Positions 1 through 64,000 of a stretch of 64,000 nt of DNA are shown one piece after another. The stretch is from Psammoneis japonica (Eukaryota). The notes below the pieces were generated by a model. It had not been told where the DNA came from, did not search any database, and saw nothing but the letters and a program-made list of their open reading frames with translations. Each line of letters starts with the position of its first letter. The stretch's first letter is position 1. The DNA lies in NCBI GenBank assembly GCA_008632985.1, contig QPGO01000133.1, positions 62,001-126,000 on the forward strand, read 5' to 3'. Position numbers and translations under genes: made by a program.

Positions 1-1
1 T

Positions 2-500
2 TAGATTCTGATTGGTCTGAGAAGCAACTGAAAGAAACGAAGCAAGGCGTGCTTCGGTGCTGACGGGAGCCAAATTGCATTGTGTGACTCCGGCTGAGAT
101 TGGTTCGGACATCATCACAAAAGGTAAGTTGTTTTCTTTGTTGTGCGGGAACTCGAGCGCATCCCCTTTCGGAAGAGTGAGGGTTGCTTTGTTTCCTCGT
201 ACGTGACATTCACCTTGGTTTCCATTCTCTTGAAAACAGGCTTGAGGGCTGAAGAGTCGAATGGAAGCGTCGGGAACACAGTGGGCTCGCGTTCGGACGG
301 TCCGGATTACATTCCAACAATCGATTGCGTCCCATTCCACGAAACCTTGACCAACTGCTCGGGTGCTGGAGGACAATCCGTTGATGGCAGTGGCACCAAT
401 GGGTTCTAGCGGTCCTGCAAAGTCACCCAAGTGGGGTGTGAGCGACGAAGATGCTCCTGTGTCAAGAACAACAGGTGCGTCGACAGGTGGGCACGATGTC
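2..500 (-). pseudogene. Copia pol, aspartic protease region (not in the ORF track because it runs off the edge)
   Basis: Manual translation: VDAPVVLDTGASSSLTPHLGDF...VGQGFVEWDAID...RTRAHCVPDASIRLFSPQACFQE...SQTNQNL. DTG at 455-463. AHCVP and PQACF stand where AYYVP and PQAYF are expected. Confidence 0.8.
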
Positions 501-1684
501 AATGCTTGACATTGGCGGCCTTCGAGATCTCTTGTGTCATTGAAGGATTTGATGTGCTGCGTTGGATCATCGGTCAACCATGGTGGGTCCGGCTTGGATG
601 CAGCGACGTGAGATGGACCTGTCGTGGTCTGGTGAGAGAACATGGCTGCTCCACCGAAACCACTCGTAAAGGTTGCTGTTGTCGTGCGTGACAGGTTGGT
701 TGCGATGCAAGAGAGCGTCGGCGCTTGACCACAAGCTCGCAACATTTCGGAAGAGGCAAGTGTCTTGATCAAATGGAGCTGTTCTAAAGGATCAATGCCT
801 TGAACAAATTCGTCTAACGAACAACCGCACTGCATGTCGCACATGATCCAGGTTTGGTGTAACAGTCGGTGCTTGATGCGGTAGAACTCTTCTAGTTCGA
901 AAGCTTCAGGGTCGTCTGGAGGTGCAAAAGGTGAGGGCTCCGTTCGTGTCGCGGAGCTACGAGGTTTGGTCCTCAGGTGGTCACCTGGAGGATCAAGCAA
1001 AGTGACGAAATCAGTTAAAGTCGCACCATGAGGAAACTCGTACATCTCGGAAGGTAGATGCAACAGGCGATGTTTGATTTGAGAATGGGCTTCTGCGGCC
1101 TCTTGTTGAGGATCGACGCAGGCAAATCTGGGTGGTCTCGTTTTCCCAGGTTTGAATCGACATCTCGATCTTGAGAGTTTCCACGACTTGGATTTTCGAC
1201 AGGAGCGATCCGGATCGGCTGCCGTTGTGTTGTCCGGAACAGGAGTTCGGCGCTGTTTGCGCCAAGTCGTTGGATGAAGGAAGGACCACAAGGGGTCTCT
1301 GCGTGGGATTCGAACTGGGTGCCGATCCAAGTGGCGAACCTGAGAATGATGTGTGATCCGAGTTCGATCAGGAGGACGACGAAATGAGGTCGGTTCGACA
1401 GCAGGAACAACAGCAAAGTCGGGAAGATCGTCGTGTGAAAGCGAAGGATTCTTGGAAAAGAGAAGCAAGCAGAACAAACATCCACCTGCTAAAACAAACA
1501 GCAACTGACAAATCGACGAAACTGCTTCGATCCCTCCCTCTCCAAGAATCTGGAGAGTGAACCACAGGAGCAAAAAATGACCAACCGACAAATGAGCCTG
1601 GACATCCCTTCCAGGAGCGGACGGTTGGTTGAAAAGGCAAGAAGAGAGGGCCACACGCTCAGGAGAGGAGGCGTGCCCGAAGCT

Positions 1685-3169
1685 TCAGGTGAAGGAGGCG
1701 AAGAGGCCGGACACAGTTTCGACCATCTCCTTCTTGGCATTGGCAATGGCGAGGTCACGATCTGTGACGGGAGCGGAAGCCGGTGCCGGAGCGGGCGCAG
1801 CGGCCGGAGCGGGAGAAGGTGCAGCGGCAGGAGTGGAGGCAACGTTCCCCGTCTCAGTCACCGGGTGCCAGCGCTTGGTTTTGCAATGATGGCAATGATC
1901 CTTGCCATCAATGTTGCGGCGACTGTCATCACTCTTTTCGGCTTCAGTCGGTGGCTGCCATTTCTTGGGAATGGTCTTGGCAGAGGGACCGGAAGAGGAG
2001 GATCCCGAAGAGTTGTTCTTGCGTTGAGCTCGTTTCGTGTCAAAGAAGAGCTTCTTGTTGGCACGAACACGAGCGTCGTCGACCGGTGTCTTGCAGTCAC
2101 ACAAAGGATGAGGGCCGCCACAGTTAAAACAAGTGACGACTCCCGCAACGAACGAAGTTGCTTGTTTCTTGGCAGACACGCCGGACCACTTGTCGGAGGA
2201 GACAAGAGCGAGACACTCGCCTTTGGCAAAGAACAAAATGTCATCCACCGCAGCAGTCGGTGCTGCAGTCGTCGAGCCCGATTGCTTGAGTTTGGAGGTC
2301 TTGGAGTCCTTGGTGAGGTGCTCGAAGAGAGAATTGAACTCGGGAACACTCGACGTTTGAAAGACTTTGGTGAGATTCTCCAGAAAATCAGTGGGAATGA
2401 CAGACTGTCCTTTCTGATCCTGGAGATTAGCGAGGCGAGAACAGCCACCGCGAACAAGAGGTGCGACTTTGCTTGCATCTTCTCCATCGAAGTCGGTGAT
2501 CTTGAGGTTGGTCATGTTGGAAACCAAACAACGAGCAGCCTCTTCGGAGTTGCTCTGAAGGAGTTTCATCATGAGAACGAAGAAAAGAGGTCCGCCCTGC
2601 TCTTCCTGATCACATTTGAGGTGCGTCTCGTTGACCTTCTTCTGCAGTGCAACGGACGCGTTCCGCTCGAAGCAGTCGTGAGCAAGACGAAGGTTTTGGC
2701 TCGCCCAAGTCCCACCGGGGTCCTCGAGCATGGTTGAGTGCCATTTGTTGCTTGCGGCGACCTCCGCTGCGGTGATCGTGGAGCATTCCTTGCAAAGATC
2801 ACGCGTCGTGAATTTATCTGGGTCGATGATGGTGAAGACGTCATCCATGTCACACTTGACATGGTTCGAACGCATGGTTGAAATGGACATCGCGAGGTCA
2901 CAAGCATCCTCGAGCTTGTCAGGATCGTTGATGTTGACGTTGAGGAGGTCAAATTTTGTCTGCTGTTTTGAAGTCGCCTTCAGAAAGAGATCGTTGAGCT
3001 TGTCAGGATCCAGCCTGTTCCTCTGCGCCTCAGTGTAGAGGGCAGTGAGAGTGTCTTGCGACGCTTTCGGCGTTGCGCGGACTTTCACCTTCCGTCCATC
3101 AATGGTCACCTCGGACATGCTGGCTGGCGGAGAAGGAGGGAGTGGAATGCTCGCTGCTTTGCTCGGCAT
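1685..3169 (-). pseudogene. Copia gag-like protein with zinc knuckle
   Basis: 494-aa ORF with CFNCGGPHPLCDC knuckle and EQGGPLFF motif. Only one Tyr in the whole ORF. Confidence 0.8.
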
Positions 3170-3642
3170 GCGAATTGCGCGAGAAAGTGCAGATTCTTCG
3201 GATGACGGTTAGTTGAATTGTCGCTGTCCGTGCGGATGTGTGCGCGTTGTTCTGCAATGCGAAAGACAGTTGCTTGACGGTCTTGGACAGCAACAGAGCG
3301 TCGAAAGTTCCGGATTTCGTCAGTTATGACGACTCGGTCGCCCACACGAAAATCCGCGATGGTCAGCTCCCGTGTGGTTGAAGTAGAAGTGCGAGCGGCT
3401 CCGGCTCACGTTGGCGCAGTGAGGCGATTCTGCCGTTCTCTTTCTGCGGCAATGCGACGAACAAGCTCCACTTCTTGAAGTTGCAGGGCTTGTAGTTGTT
3501 CAATGAGGTCGTCAAGTGTCGCAGAGTTCCTTTCGGACATGTGCAACACTCACGTAGAATTGTACGTAAAGAATGTACGGAGCTCACTTCTCGTCCACCG
3601 GAGAGAAAGAGATGAGCGCAGGAGTGATCAAGCGTGATGCTT

Positions 3643-5679: not shown

Positions 5680-6170
5680 AGTAGCAGTGTTTACAATGTG
5701 TGGTGTTTCATAGTTTGTTCGTCTCTAAATGAGAATAGGCTTCCTCTTCGGCTTCGGCGAAAACAATTTCAGTGAGCCCCGCCCCTGCCCCCTGCCCCCT
5801 GCTGCTGTCGGCACCAACAGCCGGATGCGCAAATGTCTTCGTGGGTTCGGCTGCGAAGGCTGGTGGCTGCACGTGATTTCGATCCCCCCGGAGGTGAGCG
5901 CTAAAAATCCTCGAAAAGCGACCCGAACACAGCTCACGAGTTCACCAGTGATGTCCCCATGTTGTTGCCGGTGCAAGGGCACATCACTTGTTTGGCATGT
6001 TTCTGGTGTCTCACCTGTGGTGATTCCTTTCCAGAAAATCCATCCTTCCCCACCTGCAATGTCGATCACCCATTGCCCCCCACCACCAGCAATGTGGCCG
6101 TTGTTTTGACCATGATTTCCCCTCACCGGCAAAGCCATTTCCCCTCGCCAGCAGTGTCGATCCCCCCCCC

Positions 6171-6177
6171 NNNNNNN
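6171..6177. other. Assembly gap (7 N) among short degenerate repeats
   Basis: NNNNNNN flanked by C runs and repeated GGCAAAGCCATTTCCCCTC. Confidence 0.95.
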
Positions 6178-6812
6178 CCCGCCAGCAATCTCCCCTTCGA
6201 CTGGCCCCCTTGTTCACCCTCCATTGGCAAAGCCATTTCCCCTCACCTGTGATGTCCGTCGCTCGTTTCTCCCGATTTCTCCTTTCTGATGTCATGGCCG
6301 TTGCCCCTCACCTGCGGCACCAATTGCCCGCTTCCTCCACACCTGCAACAAGTGGTCCCTGGGATGCAACATTGTTTGGTGTGCTGTGCTGTGATGCCGT
6401 TGCACCCGCCATTGACCCTGCTGCGCCATCGTCATTGTTGCAACAACTTTGTTGTTGCCATCACATTGCACATGCTTCTGCTGTCCACTTCTTGATGCTC
6501 TCGGTCATTGTTGTTGGCATCATCATGTCCTTCATGTCGGCAGAAAAAAGCAACAACTGCGATGGTGTCACACCTGATGACTCTGCTGCCATTGGCCATT
6601 CTGCACCCCAGCACACTGCTGCTCCCCCCAGCTGTTCAACAAGCACTTTGTTGGGCATCGGCAGAGACACAATGCTTCTCTTTGTTTTGAGGAATGTCCG
6701 GCTTGTGGTTGTCATGTCGCTGATTCCTGTGGGCAAGTGTCTCTTGGTTGTCATGAACATCCTTGGCTCATCCACCTCAGCTGTGGTCTGCGCACCTTGT
6801 CTTCATGCTGGG

Positions 6813-7432
6813 GCTTTTGCCATGCTTGCGAATCGTCCAGCCAGTTCCGCGAACTGGTTCATGGCAGCTTTGACACAAGATCGTCCCAACAGTGCTTTCT
6901 TCAATGTCACAACAAAGCTCGTCACACTCACACTGTTGCTTTTTCTTCCACAACACCTTCTGCAGATGAATCTTCCTCTGCTTCATTTCAAGATGATGGT
7001 GCCTTTGCATTCCTTGCCTCTGACTGTTGTTTGTCTGACAACAATGGCTCCAGAGCTGTTGAGGTGAATGCTGACAATTGGCTCTTGGTGGCTGCGGAAT
7101 TCAGCAACACTTTGGCTTTTGCCATGCTTGCAAATTGTCCAGCCAATTTTGCAAACCGGTTCATGGCAGCTTTGATGCAAGATTGTCCCAACGGCACCCT
7201 CTTCAATGTCGCAACAAAGCTTGCTGCACTCACGTTGTTGCTTTTTCTTCCATGACACCCTCCGCGGCTGAATCTCTGCCTGCTTCATTTGAAGATGATG
7301 GTGCCTTTGCATCCCTGGATGACTGTGCCACAGATGCTGCCTCTGGCTGTTGTCTGTCTGACAACAATGGCCCCAGAGCTGTTGAGGTGAATGCCAACAA
7401 TTGGCTCTCGGTGATCCCGGAATCCAACAACA
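6813..7432. repeat. Tandem duplication, ~300-bp unit
   Basis: GCTTTTGCCATGCTTGC...CCAGAGCTGTTGAGGTGAATGC occurs from ~6813 and again from ~7115. Confidence 0.85.
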
Positions 7433-9120
7433 CTCCCCCCCACACACACACATCATGAGAGAGGATCCCTCCTCATTTTCCCACACTGTGGGTGACTGTG
7501 CCACCAGGTTTGTTGGCACCTCACAAGGCAACATGGGTTGTGGAGTGGACCATTTGGTTGCGAAAGCACTGCAGCAAGCAAAGATTCCTGATTTTGTGCA
7601 CTGTCATCCTCGTGACACTCTTCAGATGATGAAACTGGAAATGTTGACAAAGCTGCTTCCCTCGTCACATCTCAAATTGCTGTCCACCAGTTTCACATCC
7701 AGTGTTGCCAATCTTCCACCAGCTGTTGATGCAATGTTGTGCACCCATCCCACACACATGAACGGCATCAACAATGCCCACTCTTTTGTTCTAGAAGGAA
7801 AGTGGGCCATGTGTCCTGACTTTCCGACACCTGTCGGAGAAGATGAAAGCAATCACACCAAATTGTTGAATGTCCACTCAATCCAACAGAAGCATCAATC
7901 GCAGGTTGATGCCACCCATTTTGTGTGGGCCGATGATGCCAACCCTTTCAAACAATTGAATCTGGCATCAATGCTCGCTGGAGTTGTGACAATTGCACCT
8001 GTTCATGCCAGGTCACAGACTGATGACAATTCCTTCTTGTTTTCTCTCAGCAACAAGAAGGCAGATCACCAGCCAATGTGGGGTTGTTTTCGCCAAGAGT
8101 GTCATCAACTGTCCAACCCAAGCAATGAATGGACATCATTTTTGCCATCACAAGACAGGAGCCATGGCTCAAGTTGCATTCTTTTGGAACTTCTTGCCGC
8201 AATGCAAGATTGTCCCAAATGATGCTCACACCTTCACCCAGCTGCCGCCAACTCCACCGTTGCGTGCTGCTGGATGTGCATTTTCAACTCAAAGCAGTGT
8301 TGGTCTGCCCTGGATGCATTCCAGCTCCAAGTGGGACCTCGCACTGCTGCACTGTGACATCAAGAGTTTTTTGGATCGTGCCACATGTTGCACATGCAGA
8401 TGGCTGCATGTGAAATTCTGCGAAATTGTTTCAGCCATGCTCCCCATTTTGTGAAGCCAAAGGATTTCTGTTTTCAACATTTGTGAGAATGAAAATGCAG
8501 TGGGCATGTTCTTTGATGTCTGGAGAACACACCCGGGCAAAGTGTCAATGATGTGCTTCAAGTGTGAAGGAGGAGTTGCGTTCGTAAAATTGCCTCTTTT
8601 TCTGTTGGCAATCATTCACATTTTCATTGCTCAACAAATTTGCTGCAGAGCTCGCACGCAGAATTCTACGGGCCCAATGTCACACAGAGTCCCACCTGGG
8701 GCTAGAACCCATCCCCCTGACAAGCTGCAAATGTGTTTCCAGAAGAGGCCAGATGGATGGTGTTTGTGTGGACTGGAACATGGATGGCCCCGGGAAAGCA
8801 CTTCTTGATTGCAAGGCATCATCTTCCTGTCCTTCATCTGCAGCTTTGGACCCAAATGACCCACACCTGTCTGTTTGCCAGCAAAATTTTGAGCTGCTGC
8901 AGGGGGCCTCTGAGATTGTCAAGGAGTCACATGCATCTGGAGTGTGGACCAAATCCACTGCCAAAGAGTTCTTGAAGGGCTGTTCCCACAGCTGTGAAGA
9001 GATGGATTGCCTTGTGCAATTCATTGATTTGGATGGGACAGGTGAATCCCATCAAATCCCAGTGCAGTGGGACATGGGCATTGGCATTTTTCCTGAGCAC
9101 AGAGTCAAAGAGCTCATGCA
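7401..9120 (+). pseudogene. Possible decayed DNA-transposon ORF (CACTA/Plavaka-like), interrupted by a MITE
   Basis: Weak motif resemblance only (FVWADDANP, LLAAMQDCP). Tyr-free ORFs lie on both sides of the MITE at 8313. Confidence 0.3.
8313..8713 (+). mobile_element. MITE family A copy, eroded
   Basis: Imperfect TIRs GATGCATTCCAGCTCCAAGTGGGAC ... GTCCCACCTGGGGCTAGAACCCATC. Interior resembles the copies at 15183, 16545 and 31029. No clean TSD. Confidence 0.8.
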
Positions 9121-9668
9121 GAGCGGAAGGTGTGGGAGACATGAGGGGCAGCAGGAGGCATCGAAGTGGCTGCTGAATCAGAGAGAGATGATGGCAAAGG
9201 TGTGTGGGAGAGAAAGAGATGGCAAAGGGTGGCGGGACCACAGCAACGTCAGGAGCACCAAAAGAGTTCTCAAGGCAGTGGTCAATGCACAGAAGAAATT
9301 TGTCAAAGGAAAGCAGGGAGGCAGGAACCTGATGGACAAAAGGAGCGGGGAGTTCAAGGACAGCCACTTCACAGTCACAGAGGCGCTTGCAAATGGAGTC
9401 AGCAAGGGCTGGGGATGGTGTGCAAATTCTTGGATCAACGGCACAAGCAAGTGCCAGGAAGGGAAAGAACAATGGGTTGAAAGTGGTGCCAAGCTTGTGA
9501 AGGAAGCAGTGGACCCAGGGAGGTCAGGAAAATGATGGGAGTCTTTTGGGAGAGCAGGGGGGGACCAAGGGATCAAAAAGAGGAAAGGCAAAATGGGGCG
9601 GCAGTGGAAGGATCACAATCGGAGCAGGAAGAAGATTCAGATGGGCAGCAAGCAGAGGTGTGGGGTGG

Positions 9669-10102
9669 TGTGCAGTGTGCCTCGCCACTGGACAACACGG
9701 CGAGACCGTGCATGAGCCTCTTGTGCGTGGCAACGCAGTGTTGTTGACACGCACCTGGGAAGCACGACCACAGGAGGGCGTGGCTCTAGGTCTCAGGCAA
9801 TTCCAGAAGGATGCTAAGAGAGCATCCGTGTGAAGCACACTGGCCCGTCGTCTGGCCCACGATGGTGGCGTGATTCCACACGATGACATCACTCGTGCAC
9901 AGTGCGTGATGGCTTGATTCGCACGATCCACAATGTGAGTGCACGATCGATTTGATGCAATCCAAATGTGAACGAACAGGGATTTGGCAAGATTCCCCAT
10001 TCACACGATCCCACTTTCTCCACTCTAAACTAGCTCACAATTTTCACAACGACAAAGTCGCAACACATCTTCTTTTTCAGTGCCTGGCACACACACAGGG
10101 CA
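9669..10102 (+). repeat. Gypsy 5' LTR
   Basis: Direct repeat of 13787-14218. Confidence 0.85.
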
Positions 10103-11789
10103 CAGCGACATTGCTCCCGCACGAAACTGCGAAATGTTGGCAGGACCGACAAATCTCAAAACGACCATGAAGAAGCGGATTGAGCCGCCGATTCCGTTTG
10201 CACGGCCGGAGAAGAAAGAGCCACAGCAGGGCGAGTGCCAGACGTTCAAACTGCGCAACAACCCCACTGATCCGGACAGTCCAATGCACGAGATGGGCAT
10301 TCCGTGCCTTTCTGCGGTTGCATGCGAGACACTCCCAATCTTTCTGCGCAACGTGGACCGTGTGCACGAAGGACAAAACATGACCACCGGGCCAGCAAAA
10401 TTTGCCCTTGTGCGTGACCTGCTGCAGGGCGATGCTCTGACGTCATTCAATGATGCCGCTGACAAGCAGGCATCCCAAACCAACGCTGCGTGCGCAGCAT
10501 GCGTCGCGAAGCTAAAGGAAAGCATCTTCCCACATGGGGCGGCACCATTGCAGAAGCGTCATCTGAGGCGCTTCATGCGCAAGCCCGCAGAGGTTTCCAC
10601 TCGTGACTGCATCGCGAGGGCTGTTGAAATCAACGGCCGCATCTCTCAGTTTCCACCCGTGACGGAGGATGGAGAAGCACCGGCACCATTGCCTGATGAC
10701 GAACTGTGCGACATGTTCGAGTGCGGTGTGCCGAACGCATGGCAGAAGTTCATGACGCTACAAAATTTTGACCCGTTGGCGCACACTGTCACCGAATTTG
10801 CACAGTTCTGCGAGCGCATCGAGCAGGTCGAGCTTGCCGAAGGCAACCTGGACCAACACACTGGGGTTCCACGTAAGCAGGGATGTAGAACAGACAATCC
10901 TGAGTCGTTGATCACGACCCAACCGAACACCCGCGTGAAACGTGTCAAGACTGGACATTCCAGCAACGGAGGCAGCAAGCCCAATGCAAAACCTCGGAAT
11001 GAGGAAGACATTGATGCTCTCATCAGATCGAAGGTCGAGGAGTTCTTTGCCAACGCTCAGAAAAAGCGCAAGGCACGCGAGGAGGAGCTCAATCACTTCC
11101 GCGACCTCAACTTAAGTGATTCCGAAGATTCGGACACTTGCCGACACGATGCAGGCAGTTTTAATGCATTGGATGAATGCATCAATGAACAACTGAATTA
11201 CCATCGTACACGTGTTGCAGGCCAATCCCGCAAACGAGTTAAAAAGACTCATCTTGCTCCAATCTTGTTCACAGCTATGAATGCTAAACATGGCAAGGGC
11301 AAGACTCAAACCATTAAGGCACTGCTAGATAGTGGCGCCAGCAGTGCTCTACTCGACAGTCGATACTGTAAACGTCTGCGAAGCCATTCAACGGCTGAGA
11401 CAAAATGGACTACGGTAGCAGGCTCGTTCAGTACGTCTAACGACTGTACCGTTAAATTTTGGTTACCAGAATTATCCGAAACTGCAGAACTTAAACATAC
11501 CGTCCACGTACACAACGGAAAGTTGGGCAAGTACGATATGATTATTGGACGTGACATTCTGGAGACACAAGGCATTGATATTGTCTTCTCTAAACAGATG
11601 ATAGAGTGGCCATTAGTCAATGGAGAAGTACCAATGAGGCACGTAGATGCTACGGTAGAAACCTCCTTCTATCTTCAAGATCCAGAAGCCTTATCTTCAG
11701 AAACCGACCGGATTTCGCGTATTTTAGACGCTAAGTACGCGCCGGCCTGCCTCAAAGACATAACGCGAGAGGCAATAGACTTTCTATAG
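10080..11789 (+). pseudogene. Gypsy gag plus aspartic protease
   Basis: TFKLRNNP...GQNMTTGPAKFALVRDLLQGDAL gag motifs; ALLDSGAS and YDMIIGRDIL protease motifs. Confidence 0.85.
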
Positions 11790-11806
11790 TTCAACAAAAC
11801 GACCTT

Positions 11807-52637: not shown

Positions 52638-54699
52638 AACCTGGAGGCTTCAGTGCTGAGAACTCTGTCATGGGGGTTCATGGACAAACTGGCCAAGTCA
52701 GGGCTGCATCTGGGAGCACCATCAGCAGACTGTTGTCACATTGAATGCATCTCTGACCCTGTTGTGTCACTGTTTGCAGAGTGCCCTGCTGGATGAAGAG
52801 TTGTCAACAAAGAGGAAGAGCTCAGCATTGGAAAGATTCAAGAGAGAAGTGCAGCATTTAAATGGAAAGCTCTCCTCTCTCTGATGATGCAGCTTGAAGC
52901 TGAACGGAGGAAGCTCTCACCATCTGGTGAAGATCTTTTAGATGTCATTCAGCAACTTCAACATAAAAGAAGAATTTGCAAGAGACACATTGCACCAAGA
53001 AACTCTCACGAACTGTTGCCTCTCTGCAGAAGGTGCAGTTGGTGGTGCTGCCAAGTGTTTTGATGACCATCTGGCCCATTTTCACAAGTCCCTTGCCAGT
53101 GTCACCATTGCTTGTTGATCTCTCTTGACTGAGTTGAAAATCACTCTAGAACAAACCTGGAGGATGCTTGTCAAGGTGGTTGAAGGAGAAGTGGATGCCA
53201 GTGAGGATTTTTGCTGCCCTCCCCCCCCCTCCCCCTCTCAAAAGAGTTCATTCTTGCGTGCATCAATGAGATGACAAAACTTCTCAAAATGGGGCTGAGG
53301 ACATGCTGACGCAAAGCAAAATCAAGGCTCTTGCAACAGTGTGGGAGCGGGCACTGAACACCAACACAAGTGAGCATGGTCTTTTCTGGGGGAAATCAAG
53401 GAAGCTGCCTCTTTGCTGCAATCAGAGAGATTGAGTCCTTTTGACATCATCTTGCAGTCATGCAATTTGGAGGGTGCCAAGGAACAGGTGATTGCAGAAA
53501 CAAAGCAAGCCAGCAAGTCATGCTGTCAGCTGAGGGTGAAGCTGGAAAAATTCAACCTGGTCCACAAGGATGTGGAAAAGTTGAGGTCAAAGCCAGATGC
53601 AAAAAGCAAAACCATCTCCCTTTGTTGTGAGATTCAAAATCTGAACCCCAAGCTTGCCGATCTTGATGAGAAGAAATGCAGCAAACAGTGATTGCTTGCC
53701 AAGAAAACAAGCAGCTCAGCTCTGCCTGAGGAAGATTGATTTGGGAAAGACACGCAAGGGGCAAAACAAGTCTTGAAGTTGCCACCATTCTGCCAAGATG
53801 CCAAGGCAGTCGCGTCCATGTGCAATTCATCCATTTTGTGATCCACTGTCAGATGAGAAGACCCTGAACAATGAAAATGAAATGATGCAACAGAGCACGG
53901 ATTGGTTTGCCTGTGCAGTTTGTGTCTTTTGAGAAACAGAAGACCAGATGTGGTGCAGGGCAATGTTCAATGAGTGCTGTGCAGGGTGTGTTCAACTCCT
54001 TTGGGCAAGAGCATTTCCAACAGCCAGCTGTTCACGCACAGCATCAAAATCAGCATGTTTCAGCCACAAAACCACAACGCATGCACTGTCACCAGTGCCT
54101 CCTGTTGCTTCATCAGCAATGTGTCATGCCATGCTTTTTCATCATGCATGCTTCAACAGCCCAACATCCTCCTTGTCAGAGGCACCCGGCTAAAGTGAGT
54201 CTGCCAGTCTTGCTTCTGATTCAACAATGTGAAGATTCGATGCTCACATGGAACCTTCCCCATTGCTGGAAAGCCAACAAGGTGCACCCATGATCTCATT
54301 GCTGTGTTGGTCCATGAGCTCTGATTCTGGGACAGAGCAGAGGCTGCAAGTTGGACACAGCCGTTCAATGCCAAGCACACAACACACACATGGTTCATTG
54401 TCATGTCAATTTGGACAGTGTGCTGCATCAGCAGCAGTTCCTGCTTTCTTCAACAGTGCGTGAATTGAATCAATTGCAGCTCTGTCCACCTGTTGGCTGA
54501 GATCAGCTGCATTTGTTCCTGCAAGATGCAAAGTGTCTCAAGATTTTTTGCCTTTTCTGCATCTTCTGTCAAAGCCAAAGGTTCTTCTGCTGGGGAAAGA
54601 AGTGATGTGGCCTTCAGATTGAAGCTTGAGCTGCTGTGTCTTTGGTGGAGGTGCTTGTTTGTTCCTCAGACTCCAACACAGGAGTTCTGCTGCAATGCT

Positions 54700-55620
54700 T
54701 TCTGCACTTGCCTCTCAAAAGAACTTCAAAAGGTCCTGCACGAAGGATGGACGGAACTGCTCTGAGTGAGGTTGCTTCTTAGATGAGCTTTGGCTGCAGC
54801 TTGAGACTCTTGCCAGCAGCCCTGCATTTCTTGGATGCAAGTGCTTGCCTCTTGCCAAAGCAGCAACTGCCATGGGTGCCCTTGTGGCATCAACAACAAT
54901 GCACAGCAGTGGAGTGCCAGGTCTGGGTCTTCTTGGACAAGGTCTTGGGGGCTTGGTGTGGCAGCACAGCCACTTGAGCATTTAATTTCCTTTTCCATTC
55001 TTGTCAAACTTTTCCTTTTGCTGTGGTCCTTTCCAGTCTTCTGATGTTTGTCTCCCTTGCCCACCTTGCCCCAAGGGCTGGGCTTCTGGAGCTGAGATTT
55101 TCTCTTGCTTTTGCTGGGGGTGTGCCCCACTTTTCCTTTTGTGAAGGAGAGCCCTGTGCTTGTTGTTTGCCAAAGTCATGAGCTGATCCACCATCAACAA
55201 GAAGTCATTTTCATCTTTGTGCACCTCTTGCTTGCACAAGAGCAGTGTGCTCAAGCAACAAATGTCTTGTCAGATGATGTCAAGCAGCCCTTGAAGAACA
55301 AACTGGTTGGCAAAGCTTCAGCAGTTTTTCCTTGCAAATGAAAAGTTGCTGGGAGCAGCCAGACTCATCAGCTGAGTGGCAATTGGGTGTCAAGTTCAGA
55401 CACAGCTCAGTTTGGGTTTCACTTGCAGCATGTCTCACATCTGAGCAGCTCTCCTGGATTGTGACCATGCCCATTGTAAAACAGGCTCTAAAAGCAAAGT
55501 TTTCAATTTTGTTCTGTCCTTCTCAGACCCTTGCTTTGACCTCTGTGCCTCTTTTTAGAGTGAAAGCATTGTGCAACCTTGTGCATTGCATGCTGTGTGT
55601 CTTGAGCTGCTTGGCTTGAA
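54700..55620 (-). pseudogene. Highly decayed Copia gag-like remnant
   Basis: Fragments LFFKGCLTSSDKTFV, QLMTLANNKHRAL and QEKISAPEAQ resemble gag segments LFKGY..SD..FV and LM.LA.NKY..L. Confidence 0.45.
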
Positions 55621-58600
55621 ATGCAAATGTGAGTCTCTTCAGACACACAATTTTTTTCCAACTCATTCTGCCCACAGTTGCACCCAGAAAATTCCTGAAG
55701 TTGTCACAATGGACATGTCAGCTGCAGCTTCAAAAGGGATGTCAGCAATCCAAATGATGCCACCTTTGGCTGCCCAATTTTGCTTCCTCATGTGGTCTTC
55801 CAGCGACAACTTCAAGAGTTGAAAGAGCTCACCAGGTGCACAGCAAAGAGTTTCCACACAGCTTCTGAGCTCTGCATGCTCCCACAGAGCTTGTGTCCAT
55901 GATTGGGGCAGCAGCCAATGACCCTGTTGCATGCCTGTGCTGGGGTCAGCACAAACAAGACTGGTGCTGGGCTTGCAAATGAGAATGAGTTTGTGTGCTG
56001 CAAACTTGCACTGCACTCAGAGGATTCAGCACCCAACATTTTCTTTGGTGCAGAGGGGAAGCACATGTTTGGCAAAACCAGAGCCAAGCCAGAAGGCAAC
56101 AATCTTGTTGTGAGCAGTGGTGATGGGGGACATCTGAGAGAGGCCACTTGTTGCCAAAGGTTGCCTCTGATGGAGAAGCAAGAAGAAGCAAGAAGTTGGA
56201 AGATTTTCATCAAAGAAGAGCCATTTTGAGGAAAGGGCCACAATGTTCCAAATGTGTGCACAACAAGATGAAGTGGTGTGATCTGTGCCCAGTCATGAGA
56301 ACATGCAATGCAGGCTGGCAATTCAGTCAACTGCTCATGAAGAGATGTGTGACCACCTCAAAATGACTGGGCAAAAAAGAGCCAGAGCAGGAACTCACAA
56401 AGCCAGCAAAAGCCCAGTGCAAGAATCACCTCATGCAAAGTGGGAGATGAAAGAGGGCTGCAAAAAATGCTGGAGAGGAGTTTGATGCTGACAGCACCTT
56501 CCAACAGAGAGCAGCCTGGAAGACAAGGTGTCAAAGCCAGCCAGTGCATGTGAAGATGGGAGTTTGGCAAAGATGACATTGATGACAGTGTGCTCATTTC
56601 TGTGTGCCAACAAGAGTCACACAAAGCAGCCTTGAGTGGGCTGCAAAAAAGCTCACTTGGAAAGGGGCAGCACCAACTGGCAAAGTTGCCCACAGAGTCA
56701 ATTTCTCCCACCAAAACTGCAAAAGCCACATCAAAGCATTGATGGCCAGCTGTCAATTTTTTGCAGTCAAGCTGCAAAAAGGAAAAAAGATGACAGCCAG
56801 AAACCCAAAACTGATTTGATCCACAAAAGGGCACTCCATCTCATGGAGTGTCAACGAAAAAAAAACAAGTCAGTTGGGCACATTGCTGCAACTGTGCTGC
56901 CCCAGTGAGAAAAACAAACAAAAGCTTGAGAAAAAAGCTGAGAGGCTCAACCTGACTGACAAACTTTTTTGCTTTGACAGCAGCAAGCTGTGATGAAAAA
57001 ATCACCAGCACCATCTGAGCAACCTGCCATCAAAGCTGACAGAAGGTGCCCCAAAGCAACACCCAGCTCTCTTCAGGATGACAGCTCATTTCCAACTGGT
57101 GACAATTTTCACAACTTTGACAACAACAGCTCAGTCAGTGCCATCCAGAGAAAAAAAAACTGCTCCCAAGATGAACAGCTCTGACAACACAAAATTGCCA
57201 CACCCCCGGACAGCCACCACCAGCTGCAGTTTTTCCTCATGCAGGCAAACTGCCTCCTGGCAATTGCGCACATCTTGCTGTGCTCTGCACCAACCCATTC
57301 AAATGGAGCAGCTTCCTTGAGCAAAAGGTGAGAAAATGACTTTGACAATGGGGTGGGGAGCACAAATCTTTGGACACAAATCTTTTGATGTGTGAGCAGG
57401 GCGAGTGCTGTTGCCATGGGCGGGAGACACACTGGGCAAGGAGACAAAAAAAAAGTTCAAGCAAATGACAATGCATCTGCACAACCCCAAGAGGATGGCT
57501 CCCTCATTGCCAGTGGGGTGCACATGGTGCAATGGCACAAAGAGAAGTTGCTGCCCTGCAGCACAATTGATCCATGCGGGCTTGTGGTGTTCACCGCAAG
57601 CTGCAAGTGAAAAACTGCAGTCTGTCCTCTGCCTTTTGGCATCTGTGTAAAAGTCAACTTTGTTTCCAAAATTGATTTGTTTTTCACTGCACAGTGCTTC
57701 TTGCATCTTCTGACATTGTCAATTGATGTGCTCCTGTGCCTGCATTTGCCAGGTTCGTGGTTCTGAGTGCCATTGCTGCTGTGGCAAGGAGGGTTTTTTT
57801 TTTGCTCCAAGAGGACAGACTGGTCATCAGCAGAATTCTGCGTGGCAATGCAGGGCCCATCAAGAAATTTGCAAAGTTTTTTTAGCATCCGGTGTCAAAC
57901 GCTTTGCCGCCACAATGGGAATCTTTTGAAAATGACCCGTGACGTGTGACGCCTCAATTGCTTGAAAACATCCGCACAATCTGTGAGTTTTTGCACCAAA
58001 GCTGTTGTCTTCTCAAAAGTTTTGCAAAAAAGAACTTCACTGCCAACTGATCAGGTGCATTTCTGCAAATGTGTTGTTCTAAAATGCTCCTGATCAGTTG
58101 GCAGCAAAGTCCATTTTTCGCAGAATTAAAATTCACTGAGGGCAGACAGACAGAGAGTTCAACATTTTTCTTGGCACTGGTCTGCACAATTTCCGCACAT
58201 TTTTCAACAATGACTCTGCAGCATGAAAGATTGCCATTGCTCTCACAATGGCATCATGGCAAAAACTTCACAACACACACTCTTGTTGAACAATGTGGGC
58301 CGATGAGCTCTCATTCTTCATTGTTGTTTTGCCTTGTCAGCCACATTTTGTGTGCGGGCATTTGTCATGAATTAGAGGTGCACAATGTAAAAGTCATCCC
58401 CATCAACAAGGACATTTGATGACAAAAAATCTGTGAAAATTCTCAAACCACAGATTTTTTTAGAAAGTGGCCATGTGCCATCTTTGGCCCCCAATTGTGC
58501 CATGATGCAACACTCTTTTGCCCCGCTGTTTTCACAAAGATCTTTGTTGACCTTCTGACCAATGCCAGCAGATGGGGTCTGCATGTGAAAAAATGGGAAG

Positions 58601-59224
58601 CCACTCTTAGAGTGGTTTTGGACAGTTTGCTCTTCCTGGAGGACAGGCCGGTTGGAAGTCAAGAGGACAGACCGGTTTTGTGTTTGCAGTGCACGGTGGG
58701 GCCCCACCAACGGTGCATTTTTCCAGACCGGGTGAGGCACAGACAGATGACAGAGTTTAAATTTAATCCCCATTGAGCTTTGAATGATTGTTCAAATTTG
58801 GAGATTGTGTTGTGATCGCGAGTCACCTTGTGAGCTGGCCGGCCTGCATTCATTTCAGTTTCTCCAAATCTTTTTTGTCAAGTCACCACGCGTTTTGCCA
58901 TGCTTTGAGTTTTTTCATTTGACGATGTTGCGTTCATCAAGATGGTGTCTTGGTGCCATGGTGAAATTGTCAAATGTTGCAAAGCAGCACTCCCCACCCA
59001 GCAATGAATCCGCTGCTGCATTTGTTGACGATTCTGCTGAACAATGGGACAGCGTTGTGGTTGTTGTGATGCACCAGCATGGTGGCATGGAGTCATTTTG
59101 CAACCTGATTCTGAGTCTGATTCAGGTGCTCCATTTCTTTGCAATTTGCTTGGGTTGCCTGAGAGTTCTCATGACAAGCTTTTGACACTTTGTGGTTTGT
59201 TGAAAGTGAAATTCATTTGCATGA

Positions 59225-59830
59225 TTAGAGACTTGGCTGCCACTCCAAGTTTTGTTTTTCCAGGAATTTGTGCATGATGAGGAAGGCTTCATTCACAAAA
59301 AGAGTGAAAGCGTGATGTGTCCCACAACAAACAGAAAAGGATCGGCCTTTGTTCATGTGTCGGAAGCAAAGGACAATGTTGGCAACGCAACTCATGTGCT
59401 GAGGTGGGCTTGGGGGGCAGTTTGCAGATTGAGAAATTTTCATCTCTTTGCTCAAAGATTGCACTTGCTGATTCACTTGCATTGTTGAATGTCAAGTCTC
59501 TCAGACACACGATTGGTGGCCCCAATTGCGCGCACTTTTGGATTTGTTGTTGCTTTTTTGCGTCAATCAGCATCAAGTGGCTGATGACATTGAAGCATCC
59601 AAGGCCATCACAATGGACACGTTTGTTCAAAAGTCAAGTGATGGGCATTGGTCGTGTCGTTTGCATGATGTTGCCACAGGAAAACCCAGTCTGCCTTTCT
59701 CAAGTGTGGCGCATCTTTGAAACCACATCTGCAGCTCAAAAGGGAAACGACTGCGATGTGAACAGCCATGCCGCCGCATCAAAAGGAGTGTCTCTTGCAT
59801 CAGTTGATTGTTGGAACAAAAGATGTTGGG
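59225..59830 (+). pseudogene. Decayed member of an algal host gene family often annotated as kinesin-light-chain/TPR-like
   Basis: CPTTNRKGSAFVH...DNVGNATHVLRWAWG, FWICC-FCVNQHQV and IGRVVCMMLPQENPVCLSQVWRIFE, split across frames. Assignment from recalled motifs. Confidence 0.5.
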
Positions 59831-60349
59831 AGCGTTGATGCTCTCACGGCGGTTTCAATGGACCGTGTGCGCACCCATCAGTGTCTTTTCTGCGTGTGCA
59901 GATGTTTTGCATGGCGTGATTTCTGCAGGACAAATTGCGCAATCTGACGTCGGCAGGGATCTCCCTCCGTCAAAAAATTTAGCCTGCAAAAGGACAAAGC
60001 ACACGAAACAAAAAATGCCGACAACCATGACGAGCACCGTCGGACAAAATGCCGTCCCAGAGAACCAGCCAATGGCCTCCACTTGCCCCTTTCAAGGAGA
60101 TGACTCAAGACATGCCGAAGCATCAGTGGTTAAAAAGGGGCAAGTGGAGATCAAAGAGTCAAACAAAAAACCGGGGATTGCACTGCGCAAGATTTTTGCT
60201 GGATTTCTCCACGGGATGAGGACACAACGGGAGCGGTGGTTCCTCTGAAGCATGCCGCAGGGGCAAAGCAGTGTGGCGGGATAGACCGGGTTGCATTCAA
60301 ACGAAGAAATTCATGCATGTTAGCAGTTGTCGTCGACAAAGCAACGAGA

Positions 60350-60660
60350 ATGTCATTCCACCAGCATGTTTTTTTAACACAAATTACAAAGCACACGGAT
60401 GCCGCACTCCTGCCAGAGGGCCAGGCTGCAGCTGTCAACAACCAGCATCTCAAGCGTGTGATGCTGTTTTTTGAGTGCAGTGGTCTAGAGTCTAAGTCGA
60501 CGAAGCAACTGGGGTGTCATTCCACCAGCATGTTTTTTGCAAGACGAGTTGCAAGATGCACACCGGCGGCATCCGATGAAGGCTCCTGCTGGAGGGCTGG
60601 GCTGGGCCACAGCTGTCAACAACCAGCATCTCAAGTGTGTGATGCTGTTTTGCATGAGTG
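60350..60660. repeat. Degenerate direct repeat
   Basis: TGTCATTCCACCAGCATGTTTTTT and GCTGTCA.CAACCAGCATCTCAAG.GTGTGATGCTGTTTT each occur twice. Confidence 0.75.
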
Positions 60661-62034
60661 TCGCATGAGTGCAGTGGTCTGGAGACTAGAAAAGCAAGTG
60701 CAAAACATCCCAATTGCTGCCAAGCAACTTTCAGACTCCATCATTCCTCATTGCTCATGGCAATCCACAAATTAGAACATCTGTAAAGCTGAGAGACCTT
60801 CAACTCATACAAGCCTTTGAACTCTTGCAGGGTTTTCCACAAGAGCCCTCTCATTCACGCAGCATGGTGATGGCAACATCATTCCCATCACACTTCACAA
60901 GCTCCCTGGATCGTTGCGAGAAAGGCTTCACCTGCACGTTGAAGTGCTACACTCATCCATCTTCAGGCACAACTTCTTTCAACATGGCGGCACTCTCAAA
61001 CATGAACAAACCTGTGCATCTCCACTGTGAATGGATCCATGTCGTTGCCCAAACAATTGAGCTCGGCCAACAAATGCGAAACCACAGAAGTGTCCAAAGA
61101 AGGTTGGCAGCTGACCATTTCACATTTCTCTTGATCGTTGAGTCTGAGGTGAAAAGTTAATTTACAATCCAGATCAGCCCTGTCGAGCTGAGTAAACACT
61201 CTTTATGAGCAAACAAGAAAACCGTGACAAAAAAGGGGTTGAGTTTTGTCGATTCACGATGCACGGCATGGCATGCAAAACACAGAAGGAACGTCTTTAC
61301 ACTTGCCAAACAAGACCAATTTTCCCATCTAGACCTGAGCATTGCTTATCATACACGAGGGAATTCGTCAAATCATCCACCGTTGTTTTCTTAGAAGAAC
61401 TGGCTCTTTGTTTCTTCGTGCCACGAGCCTGCTCTTTTTCCTCTTCGTGGTGAAGTCAGAAAAACGAGAGAACTTAAAAGATGGCAAAAGTGTGCAACAA
61501 TGTAGTTACTTATACTCTACCTTGCTTCCTTTTGTTTAGATTGTGCAATTGACAACGGCGCCGCGACGATTGCGGTGTGTAGGAAGTGCCATTGCGTTGC
61601 GACTGAAAAAGATGCTCCGAGCTCCGAGCGAGCCGTTGGATTTGTGAGACGTCATCACTGTGTAGAAATGTACACAGAGAGTTGGTACAAATCAGATTAG
61701 TACCACATCCTACGCACAGGGTCCCCGTGTAGGGCCTACGCGCGTGAAACCGTCGTGCTCTCTGCATTAAGTTCAGTTCTTTTTTCTGTCGCGCTTTCTT
61801 CTCTCCACTGGCAGACATGTTTTTGACTACGGTGCCGTAGTTGCTCCTCGACGATTGGCCCCACCCGGCACATAATGCCTGTGTGAATTCTGGTTCGCGC
61901 GTTCAACGGTCGAATTTTTATTCGTTCCCAATGACATTGCTGAAACGTCGAAGTTTTTGAAACGGGTGCAGGTTAGCAATCATCAACAATACATCATCGC
62001 AACAATCTGCCCATCGCTTGAAATAGATTGCGAC

Positions 62035-63408
62035 ATGACGAACGGGGAAAGCGGGCAAAGAAATCGGATCATGAATTGGCGTGTGTTGAGGTTTGCGATT
62101 TTGATGATTCTTTGTTATCATTTACTAGACACGAGCGAAAGCCTCTTCCACTCGTTTATTCCAAAGATCGTTGGCGAACCGGAACTGAAAGCATCGCAAG
62201 AAAATTATTTGCTTGCCAGCGATAATGTTCACCAACTGCCAGAGGCTCTTCTACCCGTCACTTTTTCAGGCTGTTGCAGCGGGCACAAATCGGATTGGAA
62301 AGCAACATGCCTCACGGAGAAAGCTTGCAATGCCTCCTATTATCCATTTTCATCCCCGGAAGAGGCGTCTTATTTTCGCAGATTGGAACTAAGCAGAAAC
62401 GAGTCGCTGTCGTTGAGACGAAAATGTCATGAATACGCGGAGAGAAAACCTCCTCCTACGCGGTGGTCGTGTTCGTCAGAGAAATTGCCGGCAGACGAGA
62501 AATATCCGATGGGTTGTAGCATGATCTCCATGGGCGGTGGTTCAGGGCCTTATGACCGTGTTTTGGTATTTCCGCAAGGAAAACTGGCATTTTGTGGGAT
62601 CCCAAAAGCCGGAATCACGCAGTGGCTTCAGTTTCTGCGCTTCACCTATGGCGCAAAGGATTACCTAAGTGTGCCATATTTCAAAGTAGACGTGGACTAT
62701 TCCAGGCTCGACGTTATGACCGAAGAAGCGAAGGACGAAATTTGGAGAGGAAAATCGTGGACGAAGGCTATCTTTATTCGTAACCCGGCTGAACGTTTAT
62801 TGTCTGGGTATCTCGACAAGATTGATCAAGCGAATGTTACCTTCGCAGAGTTCGTCGATATTCTTGCAATGAAGAACATTACCAGACTTGATGAAACGCC
62901 CGGCAAATTGAATGGCATGTTTACTGGGCTGACATGGCTAACTGATCCACACTTTAGACCGCAAGCTTGGGCATGTGGATTGTCTGAGGAATTGGACACG
63001 TTTCATTATGTCGCGTCAATGGACCGTGTCGACTTCCATACGAAGGCATTGCTGCAGCAAGTGAATATGTGGGAGTCCTTTGGAAGACATTATCGTTTGT
63101 CAAGTAAGAAAATAAGTGCAAAAAATGTACCATGGGCAATGTGGCCTCCTGAACTCCAGCAGCAACAAGATGAGGAAGCAGAAATAGGTTTCCAGCAACA
63201 TCAGGTTGGCAAGATTACCGACGCGGCGACAAGGCACAACACTGGTGCAACAAGCAAGATAAATGAATATTATACTCCAGAGCTTATGAAGAGGGTGAGA
63301 GATGTTTATTGGATGGACTTTGCTTTGTGGGACGCACTGCAAGAGGCAGACAAGGAAGGCCTTGTACACGGCAAAGACGTTGCAAAGAAACTGAACCCAA
63401 ATTGTTGA
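62035..63408 (+). CDS. Carbohydrate sulfotransferase (Sulfotransfer_2 type), copy 2, intact
   Basis: Same motifs as copy 1 in one frame. ATG at 62035 (MTNGESGQR) matches the copy 1 start. Confidence 0.9.
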   Translation: MTNGESGQRNRIMNWRVLRFAILMILCYHLLDTSESLFHSFIPKIVGEPELKASQENYLLASDNVHQLPEALLPVTFSGCCSGHKSDWKATCLTEKACNASYYPFSSPEEASYFRRLELSRNESLSLRRKCHEYAERKPPPTRWSCSSEKLPADEKYPMGCSMISMGGGSGPYDRVLVFPQGKLAFCGIPKAGITQWLQFLRFTYGAKDYLSVPYFKVDVDYSRLDVMTEEAKDEIWRGKSWTKAIFIRNPAERLLSGYLDKIDQANVTFAEFVDILAMKNITRLDETPGKLNGMFTGLTWLTDPHFRPQAWACGLSEELDTFHYVASMDRVDFHTKALLQQVNMWESFGRHYRLSSKKISAKNVPWAMWPPELQQQQDEEAEIGFQQHQVGKITDAATRHNTGATSKINEYYTPELMKRVRDVYWMDFALWDALQEADKEGLVHGKDVAKKLNPNC

Positions 63409-64000
63409 ATGCAAGAGTGAACGTTTCGCATTGTTTACTCCTTCGTTTCGCTAGCTTTAATTTACTTGAGGTTGACTCGTTTTCTTTGATCATGCTTTCA
63501 CTGATGTCGACTAAGGCGTTGCTGTTCTTGCAGCTTTAGCCTTGTTTCCAGAACAACAAGAACTGTGCTGCTGTGCCAAGACCAGCTTTCACAAAAGCTG
63601 TGCCGATGTCAAACTGTTGTTGTTTTTACATTGTTTTGTGTCATCGGAGAACATGAAAGTGGTCTTCAAGCAGAGTCTCAAACACTCACTTCTTCAAATG
63701 GCATGGCGTGCATCCCTGAACTCAGCCACGATCAGCACGAAACTCGAAGGGTCCACAAGTCATGCATTTAAAATGACTGATGAAACCTGCAGATGGCACC
63801 CCTGCCAACAACATGAGTTGAGGTAATGTGGCATTGGAAATTCCTCCAATCCCAGCAACACCCATCGGCGCCACCTCAGATTGGGGCATTGGGGCACATT
63901 TTTCTCTCTTTTTCATTTGGCCCTTTTTTGTGGCAAGTTTTTTGTTTTCTGAAACATCTTTTACAGCATGTTGTTTGGATTTGGAAAAAAATGACAGGAG

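Follow-up and report, generated by a model that had tools for sequence, protein, structure and literature searches.

Why is the dinucleotide TpA (TA) nearly absent from most of a 64-kb stretch of a diatom genome and ordinary in the genes that lie within it? We addressed this question in 64,000 nt of Psammoneis japonica (assembly GCA_008632985.1, contig QPGO01000133.1, positions 62,001 to 126,000), and "the window" hereafter means this whole stretch. An earlier note on the same DNA had proposed that transposable elements (TEs) are hypermutated here by A-to-G changes at TpA. Our analysis favors a similar answer: with a probability of roughly 0.8, integrated mobile DNA in this diatom undergoes a post-integration hypermutation of TpA, which converts A:T to G:C on both strands, proceeds nearly to saturation and ends sharply at host genes.

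The window contains 1,077 TA, corresponding to an observed/expected ratio (O/E) of 0.26, whereas the ratios of TG, CA and CG are 1.50, 1.52 and 0.61, respectively. We segmented it with a two-state hidden Markov model (HMM) of T-then-A and obtained 11 depleted and 10 normal segments (Table 1). The depleted segments sum to 44,422 nt (69.4% of the window) and hold 140 TA (O/E 0.051), where base composition would predict 2,749 and the O/E of normal segments 1,796; the normal segments (19,505 nt) hold 927 (O/E 0.653). The O/E values of CG, TG and CA are 0.46, 1.65 and 1.68 in the depleted state and 1.04, 1.17 and 1.18 in the normal state, and the longest run without TA extends over 2,118 nt. The stop triplets TAA and TAG together occur 2.6 times per kb per strand in the depleted blocks and 20.4 times outside. 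Host gene islands right beside these blocks show TA O/E values of 0.52-0.69, and the transitions are completed within tens of bases: at 12088, for example, a TA is found each 15-20 nt before the border and then none for 362 nt, and similarly sharp borders are found at 21681, 25427, 39228 and 44438. The blocks listed in the earlier note were thus recovered to within ~200 nt, together with the normal TA of the gene islands and the sharpness of their edges. The depletion is a matter of mutation, not of composition.

The timing of the loss can be read from the two long terminal repeats (LTRs) of a Ty3/Gypsy element, which are 90.4% identical over 427 nt and share no TA at all. Their 29 difference events comprise 10 doubles in which TG in one LTR faces CA in the other, 4 cases of TA facing TG or CA, 10 CpG-type changes, 3 other transitions and 2 transversions. 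Only ~0.6 doubles would be expected from the CpG in both LTRs (22 shared and 10 one-sided). Because the LTRs were identical at insertion and now differ at TA sites, TA was lost in the chromosome after integration, independently in each LTR. In a model of independent hits, each LTR had ~23 ancestral TA (normal density) and lost 90% of them (p = 0.90), compared with a CpG loss per LTR of p = 0.19; according to this indirect estimate from one LTR pair, TpA mutated ~295 times and CpG ~26 times as fast as the other sites of the same LTRs. As a control we used the TA-normal part of a duplicated sulfotransferase gene in the window (1,510 nt, 87.7% identical), where 1 double, 6 TA-type and 25 CpG-type events accompany 39 other transitions and 65 transversions. 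TA-type changes are therefore in excess in the element (14/29) over the control (7/136); lack of such an excess was an outcome that, according to the earlier note, would have spoken against its proposal.

The same loss was found in a family of miniature inverted-repeat transposable elements (MITEs) with common terminal inverted repeats (TIRs) that begin GACGYGTTCCAGCC. Three copies of this family (24917-25478, 31029-31424 and 44399-44795) are TA-normal; in the first, TA O/E is 1.02 over 24988-25427. The third is the one clear insertion of the family, with AGAC at each flank as its duplication, and remains untouched at normal TA amid a depleted block. One contig from a public DNA sequencing run (X1) joins 44398 to 44796 and skips these 397 nt, and the insertion is therefore polymorphic and recent. 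The summed word depth of the second copy in X1 is 45,158, compared with ~50-60 in single-copy bins, and that of the family 45,000-82,000 against ~55, or ~1,000 times single copy; these depths mean that the family has been mobile recently and is very abundant. Four degenerate copies inside depleted blocks present the opposite state. In four alignments, the TA of a TA-normal copy is kept at 4/92 sites, compared with 30/94 for CG and 42-80% for the remaining dinucleotides (14 in all). At the TA sites the degenerate copies have TG or CA in 17/26, 14/20, 16/25 and 15/23 cases, and changes in the opposite direction are rare. The MITE family is a DNA-transposon derivative and the third TE class that shows TA loss. 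The process accordingly affects a DNA-transposon derivative as well as LTR retrotransposons, and recently inserted copies are spared.

The consequences for coding capacity are visible in both retrotransposons. The Gypsy open reading frame (ORF) 11735-13501 carries the Pfam domains RVT_1, RT_RNaseH and RT_RNaseH_2, and 120 full-length Gypsy pol homologues align across 10182-13806, where the integrase core is deleted in the window element. We regarded a column as conserved when it held 60 or more aligned homologues and 70% or more of them agreed. The depleted part of pol keeps the consensus residue in 226/316 such columns; of the 90 changes, a single step from TA to TG or CA (including TA that span two codons) suffices for 49 and CpG decay for 7, and 34 fit neither. 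All conserved Tyr are gone (0/19 kept): nine are now His (CAY), six Cys (TGY) and one each Trp, Arg, Met and Ala. The losses include the Tyr columns at 12191 and 12194, which are 99-100% conserved. Other frequent changes are Ile to Val (10), Thr to Ala (8), Leu to Ser (6) and Lys to Glu (3), with Leu to Pro once, whereas Gly (19/19), Ala (12/12), His (8/8) and Gln (10/10) are intact. In the Ty1/Copia element, the ORF 2-1684(-) of 561 aa matches 10 polyproteins with the domains PF07727 RVT_2 and PF13976 gag-pre-integrase (best E 1e-47), which tblastn placed at 2-844(-). Here again none of the conserved Tyr is kept (0/4; two His and two Cys), compared with 49/55 of the other conserved columns, and the frame contains 1 stop (TGA) in 1,069 codons and only 0.3% Tyr. 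These missense changes at conserved columns of both elements (pooled Tyr 0/23; 11 His, 8 Cys and 4 other) agree with the earlier proposal that the TEs are inactivated. The note had described this decay of Tyr and Leu in three TE classes; it holds for Gypsy and, as regards Tyr, for Copia, and we did not recover the third class, a tyrosine recombinase (YR) element, in the Pfam scan described below or with the Gypsy and Copia probes. The MITE family takes its place.

Within the Gypsy frame, an island of normal TA (11113-12088) provides an internal comparison: it keeps 102/113 conserved columns and all of its Tyr (4/4), and 2/11 changes are TA-type, whereas its flanks have lost 80-90% of their TA. 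Its right edge is sharp to ~50 nt. Possible reasons are that an intact copy restored this stretch by gene conversion once a burst of hypermutation had passed, that the island was protected locally, that the process acts in episodes, or that the assembly is a mosaic here. We also compared 74 related Gypsy loci from metagenomes, whose TA O/E ranges from 0.57 to 1.18 (median 0.83) and none of which has a 1-kb window below 0.2. Judged by these sequences, the Gypsy lineage is not TA-poor by nature. Active copies that were equally TA-free would have counted against the proposal; the polymorphic, high-copy MITE and these loci are TA-normal. Separately, six of the metagenome loci (L039, L041, L062, L063, L067 and L074) show CpG O/E values of 0.02-0.36 with ordinary TA (0.57-0.78). 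CpG decay that leaves TpA alone is thus common elsewhere.

Both strands are hit, as follows from the balance of TG and CA in every block (e.g. 1,205 and 1,232), from runs tests that are null, with no long one-strand tracts, and from the similar numbers of His and Cys at former Tyr codons. TA-type changes stand out in the LTR, MITE and Tyr spectra alike, in support of the A-to-G change on both strands that had been proposed. Loss of TpA and loss of CpG are separate processes, the latter roughly ten-fold slower: the Copia block (TA O/E 0.07-0.14, CG O/E 0.93-1.03) and the region 9.5-11.1 kb together have TA O/E values of 0.07-0.17 with CpG near 1, whereas both dinucleotides approach 0 at 50.5-57.5 kb. 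Decay of 5-methylcytosine therefore does not explain the TA loss, as the note had argued. Diatom TEs are described as CG-methylated via DNMT5a (PMC9998398), and this methylation explains the slower CpG loss.

We further analyzed the bases that flank TA (R, purine; Y, pyrimidine). The TA remaining in depleted DNA comprise 3 R-TA-Y, 47 mixed and 90 Y-TA-R sites, compared with 275, 503 and 149 in normal DNA (chi-square, P = 5e-38). Relative survival is 0.385 for TTAA and 0.277 for CTAA/TTAG, but 0.006 for GTAC and 0 for ATAT (0 vs 136 occurrences, strands pooled), and all 4 TA that remain in the first LTR are CTAG or CTAA (YTAR), each of them TG or CA in the second LTR. R-TA-Y sites are thus lost first and Y-TA-R sites last. 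The old MITE copies are saturated (YTAR kept 0/11) and the rule is uninformative there. At the level of single strands, the strand with A then pyrimidine is favored 35 to 9 in the MITE copies, three of which may share ancestry while the fourth shows nothing; block-wide gains point in the same direction at ~2.5 to 1, and Tyr codons at Y-TA-Y sites became Cys in 5 cases and His in 7. The earlier note had taken the whole process to be undescribed. A 2026 preprint, however, reports hypermutation of TpA to TpG or CpA in the alga Bigelowiella natans (Mettrop et al., bioRxiv 2026; doi 10.64898/2026.01.13.699255); it was the sole relevant work in our literature search, which found no diatom report of TpA hypermutation. 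The words context, flanking, trinucleotide and tetranucleotide have 0 occurrences in the main text of the preprint, and the flank rule is new here.

The depleted state was also found in contigs of a public DNA run. Run X1 contains 87% of sampled words from 32001-42000, and its contigs (word depth ~50-60), compared with 30001-50000, cover the TA-free blocks and reproduce them with 0.4-1.4% differences (9 in 2,516 nt, 6 in 731, 5 in 852 and 19 in 1,461), compared with 0 differences in 2,217 nt over the gene region 34968-37184. Reads that show TA at these sites would have argued for a platform error, and these contigs do not show it. Pairs of TG and CA account for 4 of the 40 listed among 282 differences between the window and X1, which as new mutations are only suggestive.

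We translated the window in the standard code and scanned all 376 stop-to-stop ORFs of at least 75 aa (118 of at least 130 aa and 258 of 75-129 aa) against Pfam; TE domains were found in none of them apart from the single Gypsy ORF, and the block 5741-9660, in which 7 Ns at 6171-6177 mark a small gap, gave no Pfam match. The 120 Gypsy and 10 Copia polyproteins matched nothing in the window beyond 10182-13806 and 2-844. A 383-aa ORF at 42784-43932(-) has no real homologue among 1.84 billion representative sequences, with 1 weak match of 41 residues. Chance ORFs in such stop-poor DNA average 214-231 aa, with a 95th percentile of 280-306 (blocks of 5-11 kb), and ORF length accordingly says little in depleted blocks. 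Parts of the unclassified depleted DNA, ~30 kb in all, are multi-copy in X1.

Several observations weigh against our conclusion. Only ~14 kb of the 44 kb of depleted DNA are demonstrably TE (Copia, Gypsy and MITEs), and the rest has no detectable homology. The untouched 976-nt island in one continuous Gypsy frame is not what a uniform, element-wide process would predict. The strand-level evidence on whether the flank rule concerns A before a pyrimidine or T after a purine is contradictory. One of the two peptide patterns in the metagenome scan held Tyr and so disfavored mutated copies, and all that follows from the scan is that TA poverty is not inherent in the lineage. If X1 comes from the sample that was assembled, as it may, it checks base calls at best, not biology. 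Finally, the 64-kb window contains no gene for a causal enzyme.

We propose the following course of events. In an integrated element, an enzyme would deaminate adenine at TpA to hypoxanthine within DNA, and the hypoxanthine would be copied as G, yielding TpG or CpA according to the strand hit. Because a change from TA to TG or CA cannot make TAA or TAG and turns them into CAA, CAG, TGA or TGG, elements would be disabled by missense (Tyr to His/Cys, Leu to Ser/Pro, Ile to Val/Thr and Thr to Ala), not by stops, and would retain long open frames. Aim would be given by a mark or guide that follows the element sequence rather than by spreading chromatin, and the action would come in episodes. Borders within tens of bases and the untouched 397-nt insertion argue for such a guide or mark, or for episodes, and against spreading chromatin; the untouched young MITEs and the Gypsy island are compatible with episodes and equally with youth or gene conversion. 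That the enzyme is a TadA/ADAT-like deaminase acting on DNA seems to us nearly an even bet, with the odds slightly against it.

The lesion might instead lie on thymine. In such a route, likewise targeted and post-integration, a modified T at TpA (e.g. of the 5-hydroxymethyluracil type, produced by a TET/JBP-like enzyme) would mispair with G and result in T-to-C changes. Since A-to-G after T equals T-to-C before A on the opposite strand, the sequence results here do not separate the two. Dinoflagellate 5-hydroxymethyluracil is enriched at TpA, which we count in favor of this route, and the symmetric R-TA-Y preference would suit an enzyme that reads duplex DNA. Nothing in our analysis supports the thymine route directly, and the preprint argues for adenine deamination, also by inference only (doi 10.64898/2026.01.13.699255); we consider the thymine route unlikely. 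A single enzyme that hits both self-complementary pyrimidine-purine (YpR) steps, TpA and (methyl)CpG, would be economical in that most blocks are poor in both dinucleotides and the loss of either yields TG and CA, and the preprint refers to ADAT2 enzymes whose deamination substrates are A in RNA and C in DNA (doi 10.64898/2026.01.13.699255). However, TpA is depleted at nearly normal CpG in the Copia block and at 9.5-11.1 kb, the two rates differ roughly ten-fold in the LTR pair, the metagenome relatives include the converse state with CpG down to 0.02, and CG methylation of diatom TEs by DNMT5a accounts for the CpG part (PMC9998398). We therefore regard one enzyme for both steps as very improbable.

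Three further explanations have, in our estimate, almost no chance of being correct. UA is described in the Discussion of the preprint as the favored context of RNA adenosine deaminases (doi 10.64898/2026.01.13.699255), and A-to-I editing of element RNA by enzymes of the ADAR/ADAT type, or an edit in cDNA, could therefore have introduced TpA-type changes before integration, by way of reverse transcription. The LTRs, identical at insertion, now show 14 TA-type differences, hits are equal on the two strands, and MITE copies are affected although MITEs have no RNA stage; these results exclude edits made in the RNA of the element or in a single cDNA strand. TAG-type sites are moreover among the slowest, whereas ADAR favors a 3' G. 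If selection on the elements, such as evasion of a TA-cutting nuclease, had made them intrinsically TA-poor, the nearly open Copia frame would be natural, but a process that removes TAA and TAG leads to open frames as well, and intrinsic poverty is contradicted by the replacement of nearly invariant Tyr, by the TA-normal relatives elsewhere, by the presence of both states in one ORF and by the divergence of the LTRs at TA sites after insertion. Lastly, sequencing, base calling or assembly could have failed at a modified base at TpA in repeats, and the possible origin of X1 from the assembly's own data leaves some room for this. The X1 contigs nevertheless give the same TA-free state, and a strand-specific miscall would leave TA and create CG in the consensus, where TA is near 0 and CG is depleted. 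In addition, young MITEs within depleted blocks are read with normal TA, and the graded survival of Y-TA-R sites and the decay of CpG look like mutation over time.

The host genes between the blocks (Table 1) show ordinary composition; the island 32586-39228, for example, has a TA O/E of 0.59 and a CG O/E of 1.03. Its fructose-1,6-bisphosphatase gene (37656-38699, minus strand) encodes a protein 82-84% identical to those of Nitzschia, Epithemia, Amphora and Fistulifera, the best match reaching 88%. By these matches the window belongs to a raphid pennate diatom, and Bigelowiella is excluded as its source. At 37570, 37628, 37631 and 37782, four sites of one strand in a 212-nt span at the gene's 3' end, the window has CA and an X1 contig TA; the DNA around them is TA-normal and lies 1.4 kb from a border. 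On one haplotype the process may have leaked into a host gene here. A second run (X2) covers 14/30 bins, all of them in gene islands, and skips 97 nt bounded by GT..AG at 38651-38747(-). X2 looks like transcript data, and the skip appears to mark an intron near the 5' end of the same gene; the lack of X2 cover over TE blocks is not evidence of silence. The minus-strand gene with HYR/legume-lectin domains contains a 270-nt unit four times in tandem at 19636-20712, in TA-normal DNA, and the units are 88% alike.

The sulfotransferase duplicate is 86% identical across 2 kb. It belongs to a direct repeat (48353-50341 and 61996-63936, period 13.6 kb) that spans the gene and also the beginning of the depleted block that follows it; its probable origin is a segmental duplication in tandem, which runs past the end of the window. 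Its depleted part is 79.5% identical, with 4 doubles of TG and CA in 303 nt, and the depletion borders of the two copies coincide only to ~200 nt.

Table 1. Coordinates of the depleted and TA-normal features of the window
Feature	Position	Strand	Remarks
Depleted segments (HMM), left part	1-783, 1059-3550, 5741-11112, 12096-17791, 21684-24984, 25429-31036		
Depleted segments (HMM), right part	31389-32585, 39230-44438, 44780-47902, 50044-61157, 63466-63992		
Ty1/Copia element	1-3550	-	gag-protease-start of pol; leaves the window at its left end; TA-depleted, normal CpG
Weakly spared patch within the Copia element	785-1055		
Depleted block, unclassified repeat DNA	5741-9660		Degenerate MITE 8320-8726; internal tandem repeat 6812-7434
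Ty3/Gypsy element	9661-14203	+	LTRs 9661-10087 and 13779-14203; TA-depleted except 11113-12088
TA-normal island in Gypsy (protease and N-terminal reverse transcriptase)	11113-12088	+	976 nt, 65 TA, O/E 0.90
Depleted block	14204-17791		Degenerate MITEs 15260-15499 and 16537-17180; 416-nt tandem repeat 15370-16202
Degenerate MITE copies in depleted blocks	8320-8726, 15260-15499, 16537-17180, 28474-28860		
TA-normal host gene island	17795-21681	-	HYR/legume-lectin repeat protein
Depleted block, unclassified	21684-24984		3 TA in 3,301 nt
MITE copy, AT-rich, TA-normal	24917-25478		Inverted repeat 24917-24939 / 25456-25478, 87% complementary
Depleted block, unclassified	25429-31036		Degenerate MITE 28474-28860
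MITE copy, TA-normal, very high copy number	31029-31424		TIR 31029-31052 / 31401-31424, 88% complementary
Depleted block, unclassified	31389-32585		
TA-normal host gene island	32586-39228	-	EF-hand/two-pore K channel, rhomboid, fructose-1,6-bisphosphatase (Pfam)
Depleted block, unclassified	39230-44398		4 TA in 5.2 kb, CG O/E 0.28
Young MITE insertion, TA-normal, 397 nt	44399-44795		Inverted repeats 44400-44427 / 44763-44790
Depleted block, unclassified	44796-47902		Partly multi-copy in X1, depth ~410-460 over 45342-46675
TA-normal sulfotransferase family 2 gene, first copy	47904-50039	+	Pfam PF03567; second copy 61158-63463
Largest depleted block, unclassified	50044-61157		39 TA in 11.1 kb, CG O/E 0.24, 0 in some 500-nt bins
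Depleted block	63466-63992		Homologous to 50040-50341, second copy of the tandem duplication

As a natural defence, editing of A:T to G:C in chromosomal DNA is so far described in the single preprint, without an enzyme or a flank rule. If diatoms share the process, it is not the curiosity of one alga but extends to at least two branches of the Stramenopila-Alveolata-Rhizaria (SAR) group and to ordinary transposons, which it would drive to saturation, and it would become testable where transformation, CRISPR knock-outs, methylomes and many genomes exist. An adenine deaminase that acts on DNA in nature, or a route through modified thymine, would be of interest to students of genome defence and to engineers of base editors alike. 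There are also practical effects on annotation: because the blocks lose TAA and TAG, gene callers predict long false ORFs there, TE annotation by protein homology fails (the ~30 kb noted above are unrecognisable), and the process distorts both the GC content of diatom repeats and their substitution spectra.

Among known systems, repeat-induced point mutation (RIP) shares with the TpA process dinucleotide transitions on both strands after integration, sharp edges, killing in place and LTRs that are driven apart. The chemistry is opposite. RIP turns C into T, chiefly in CpA, and thereby gives rise to TpA and to stop codons, according also to the Discussion of the preprint (doi 10.64898/2026.01.13.699255), whereas here TpA is destroyed (O/E 0.05), TAA and TAG vanish and GC is higher in the blocks (0.502) than in normal DNA (0.461). 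RIP does not explain the locus, as the earlier note had stated. Moreover, a MITE family of ~1,000 copies is untouched here, unlike what simple repeat-sensing would give, although its length of ~400 nt could be under the threshold. DNMT4, related to RID, is present in some diatoms, its function being given as unknown (PMC9998398). Decay of methyl-CpG is present in the window as a second process (CG O/E 0.46 in the blocks and the 10 CpG-type LTR differences), but it cannot remove TpA, proceeds at about a tenth of the rate and is not seen in the youngest depleted elements.

APOBEC3 and ADAR are alike in restricting mobile elements through deaminase-type mutation, and ADAR favors U before the edited A (doi 10.64898/2026.01.13.699255). 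They act on cDNA or RNA before integration and on one strand, whereas in P. japonica both strands of already integrated DNA are changed, and a DNA-transposon derivative is among the targets. The natural site of TadA/ADAT enzymes is A34 after the invariant U33, a UA step followed by C in bacterial tRNA-Arg, and bacterial TadA and early base editors prefer U/T-A-C. This U33-A34(-C) site of TadA and ADAT2-ADAT3 fits a T-A-pyrimidine target, although the strand-level evidence for T-A-Y here is mixed, and for none of the TadA/ADAT enzymes or TadA-derived base editors has a natural action on TE chromosomal DNA been shown.

The closest parallel is B. natans. In 15 mutation-accumulation lines of this alga, as reported in the preprint, 231/302 nuclear mutations fell in integrated giant-virus and virophage regions; 230/231 were A-to-G or T-to-C, all on TpA and giving TpG or CpA, at ~6e-7 per site per generation, or 1,000 times the rate elsewhere, and mutations in viral regions appeared in only 11/15 lines (doi 10.64898/2026.01.13.699255). 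Low-TpA predicted genes there are enriched in reverse-transcriptase and DDE domains, and an ADAT2 homologue was proposed as the enzyme without a test (doi 10.64898/2026.01.13.699255). The window presents the same kind of features, namely specificity for TpA, confinement to foreign DNA beside unaffected host genes, and a rate raised by orders of magnitude, here ~300-fold, in mobile DNA and on both strands, with ~30 kb of the blocks unclassified. By this analogy, we infer that the two may be the same process. A more ambitious picture, in which a dedicated, sequence-aimed and episodic diatom defence erases R-TA-Y quickly in freshly integrated mobile DNA, is homologous to that of Bigelowiella and ancient in SAR, has a DNA adenine deaminase at its core and mirrors RIP, is in our opinion doubtful as a whole. 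The two cases differ in lineage (a diatom of the Stramenopila here, a chlorarachniophyte of the Rhizaria there), in targets (LTR retrotransposons and MITEs as opposed to a nucleocytoplasmic large DNA virus and a virophage), in extent (near saturation at O/E 0.05 compared with Rho 0.45 in the viral region) and in evidence, which is historical here and real-time there. Relative to the preprint, the P. japonica window adds the LTR proof of post-integration action, the separation from CpG decay, the flank rule, ordinary transposons as targets and a second branch of SAR.

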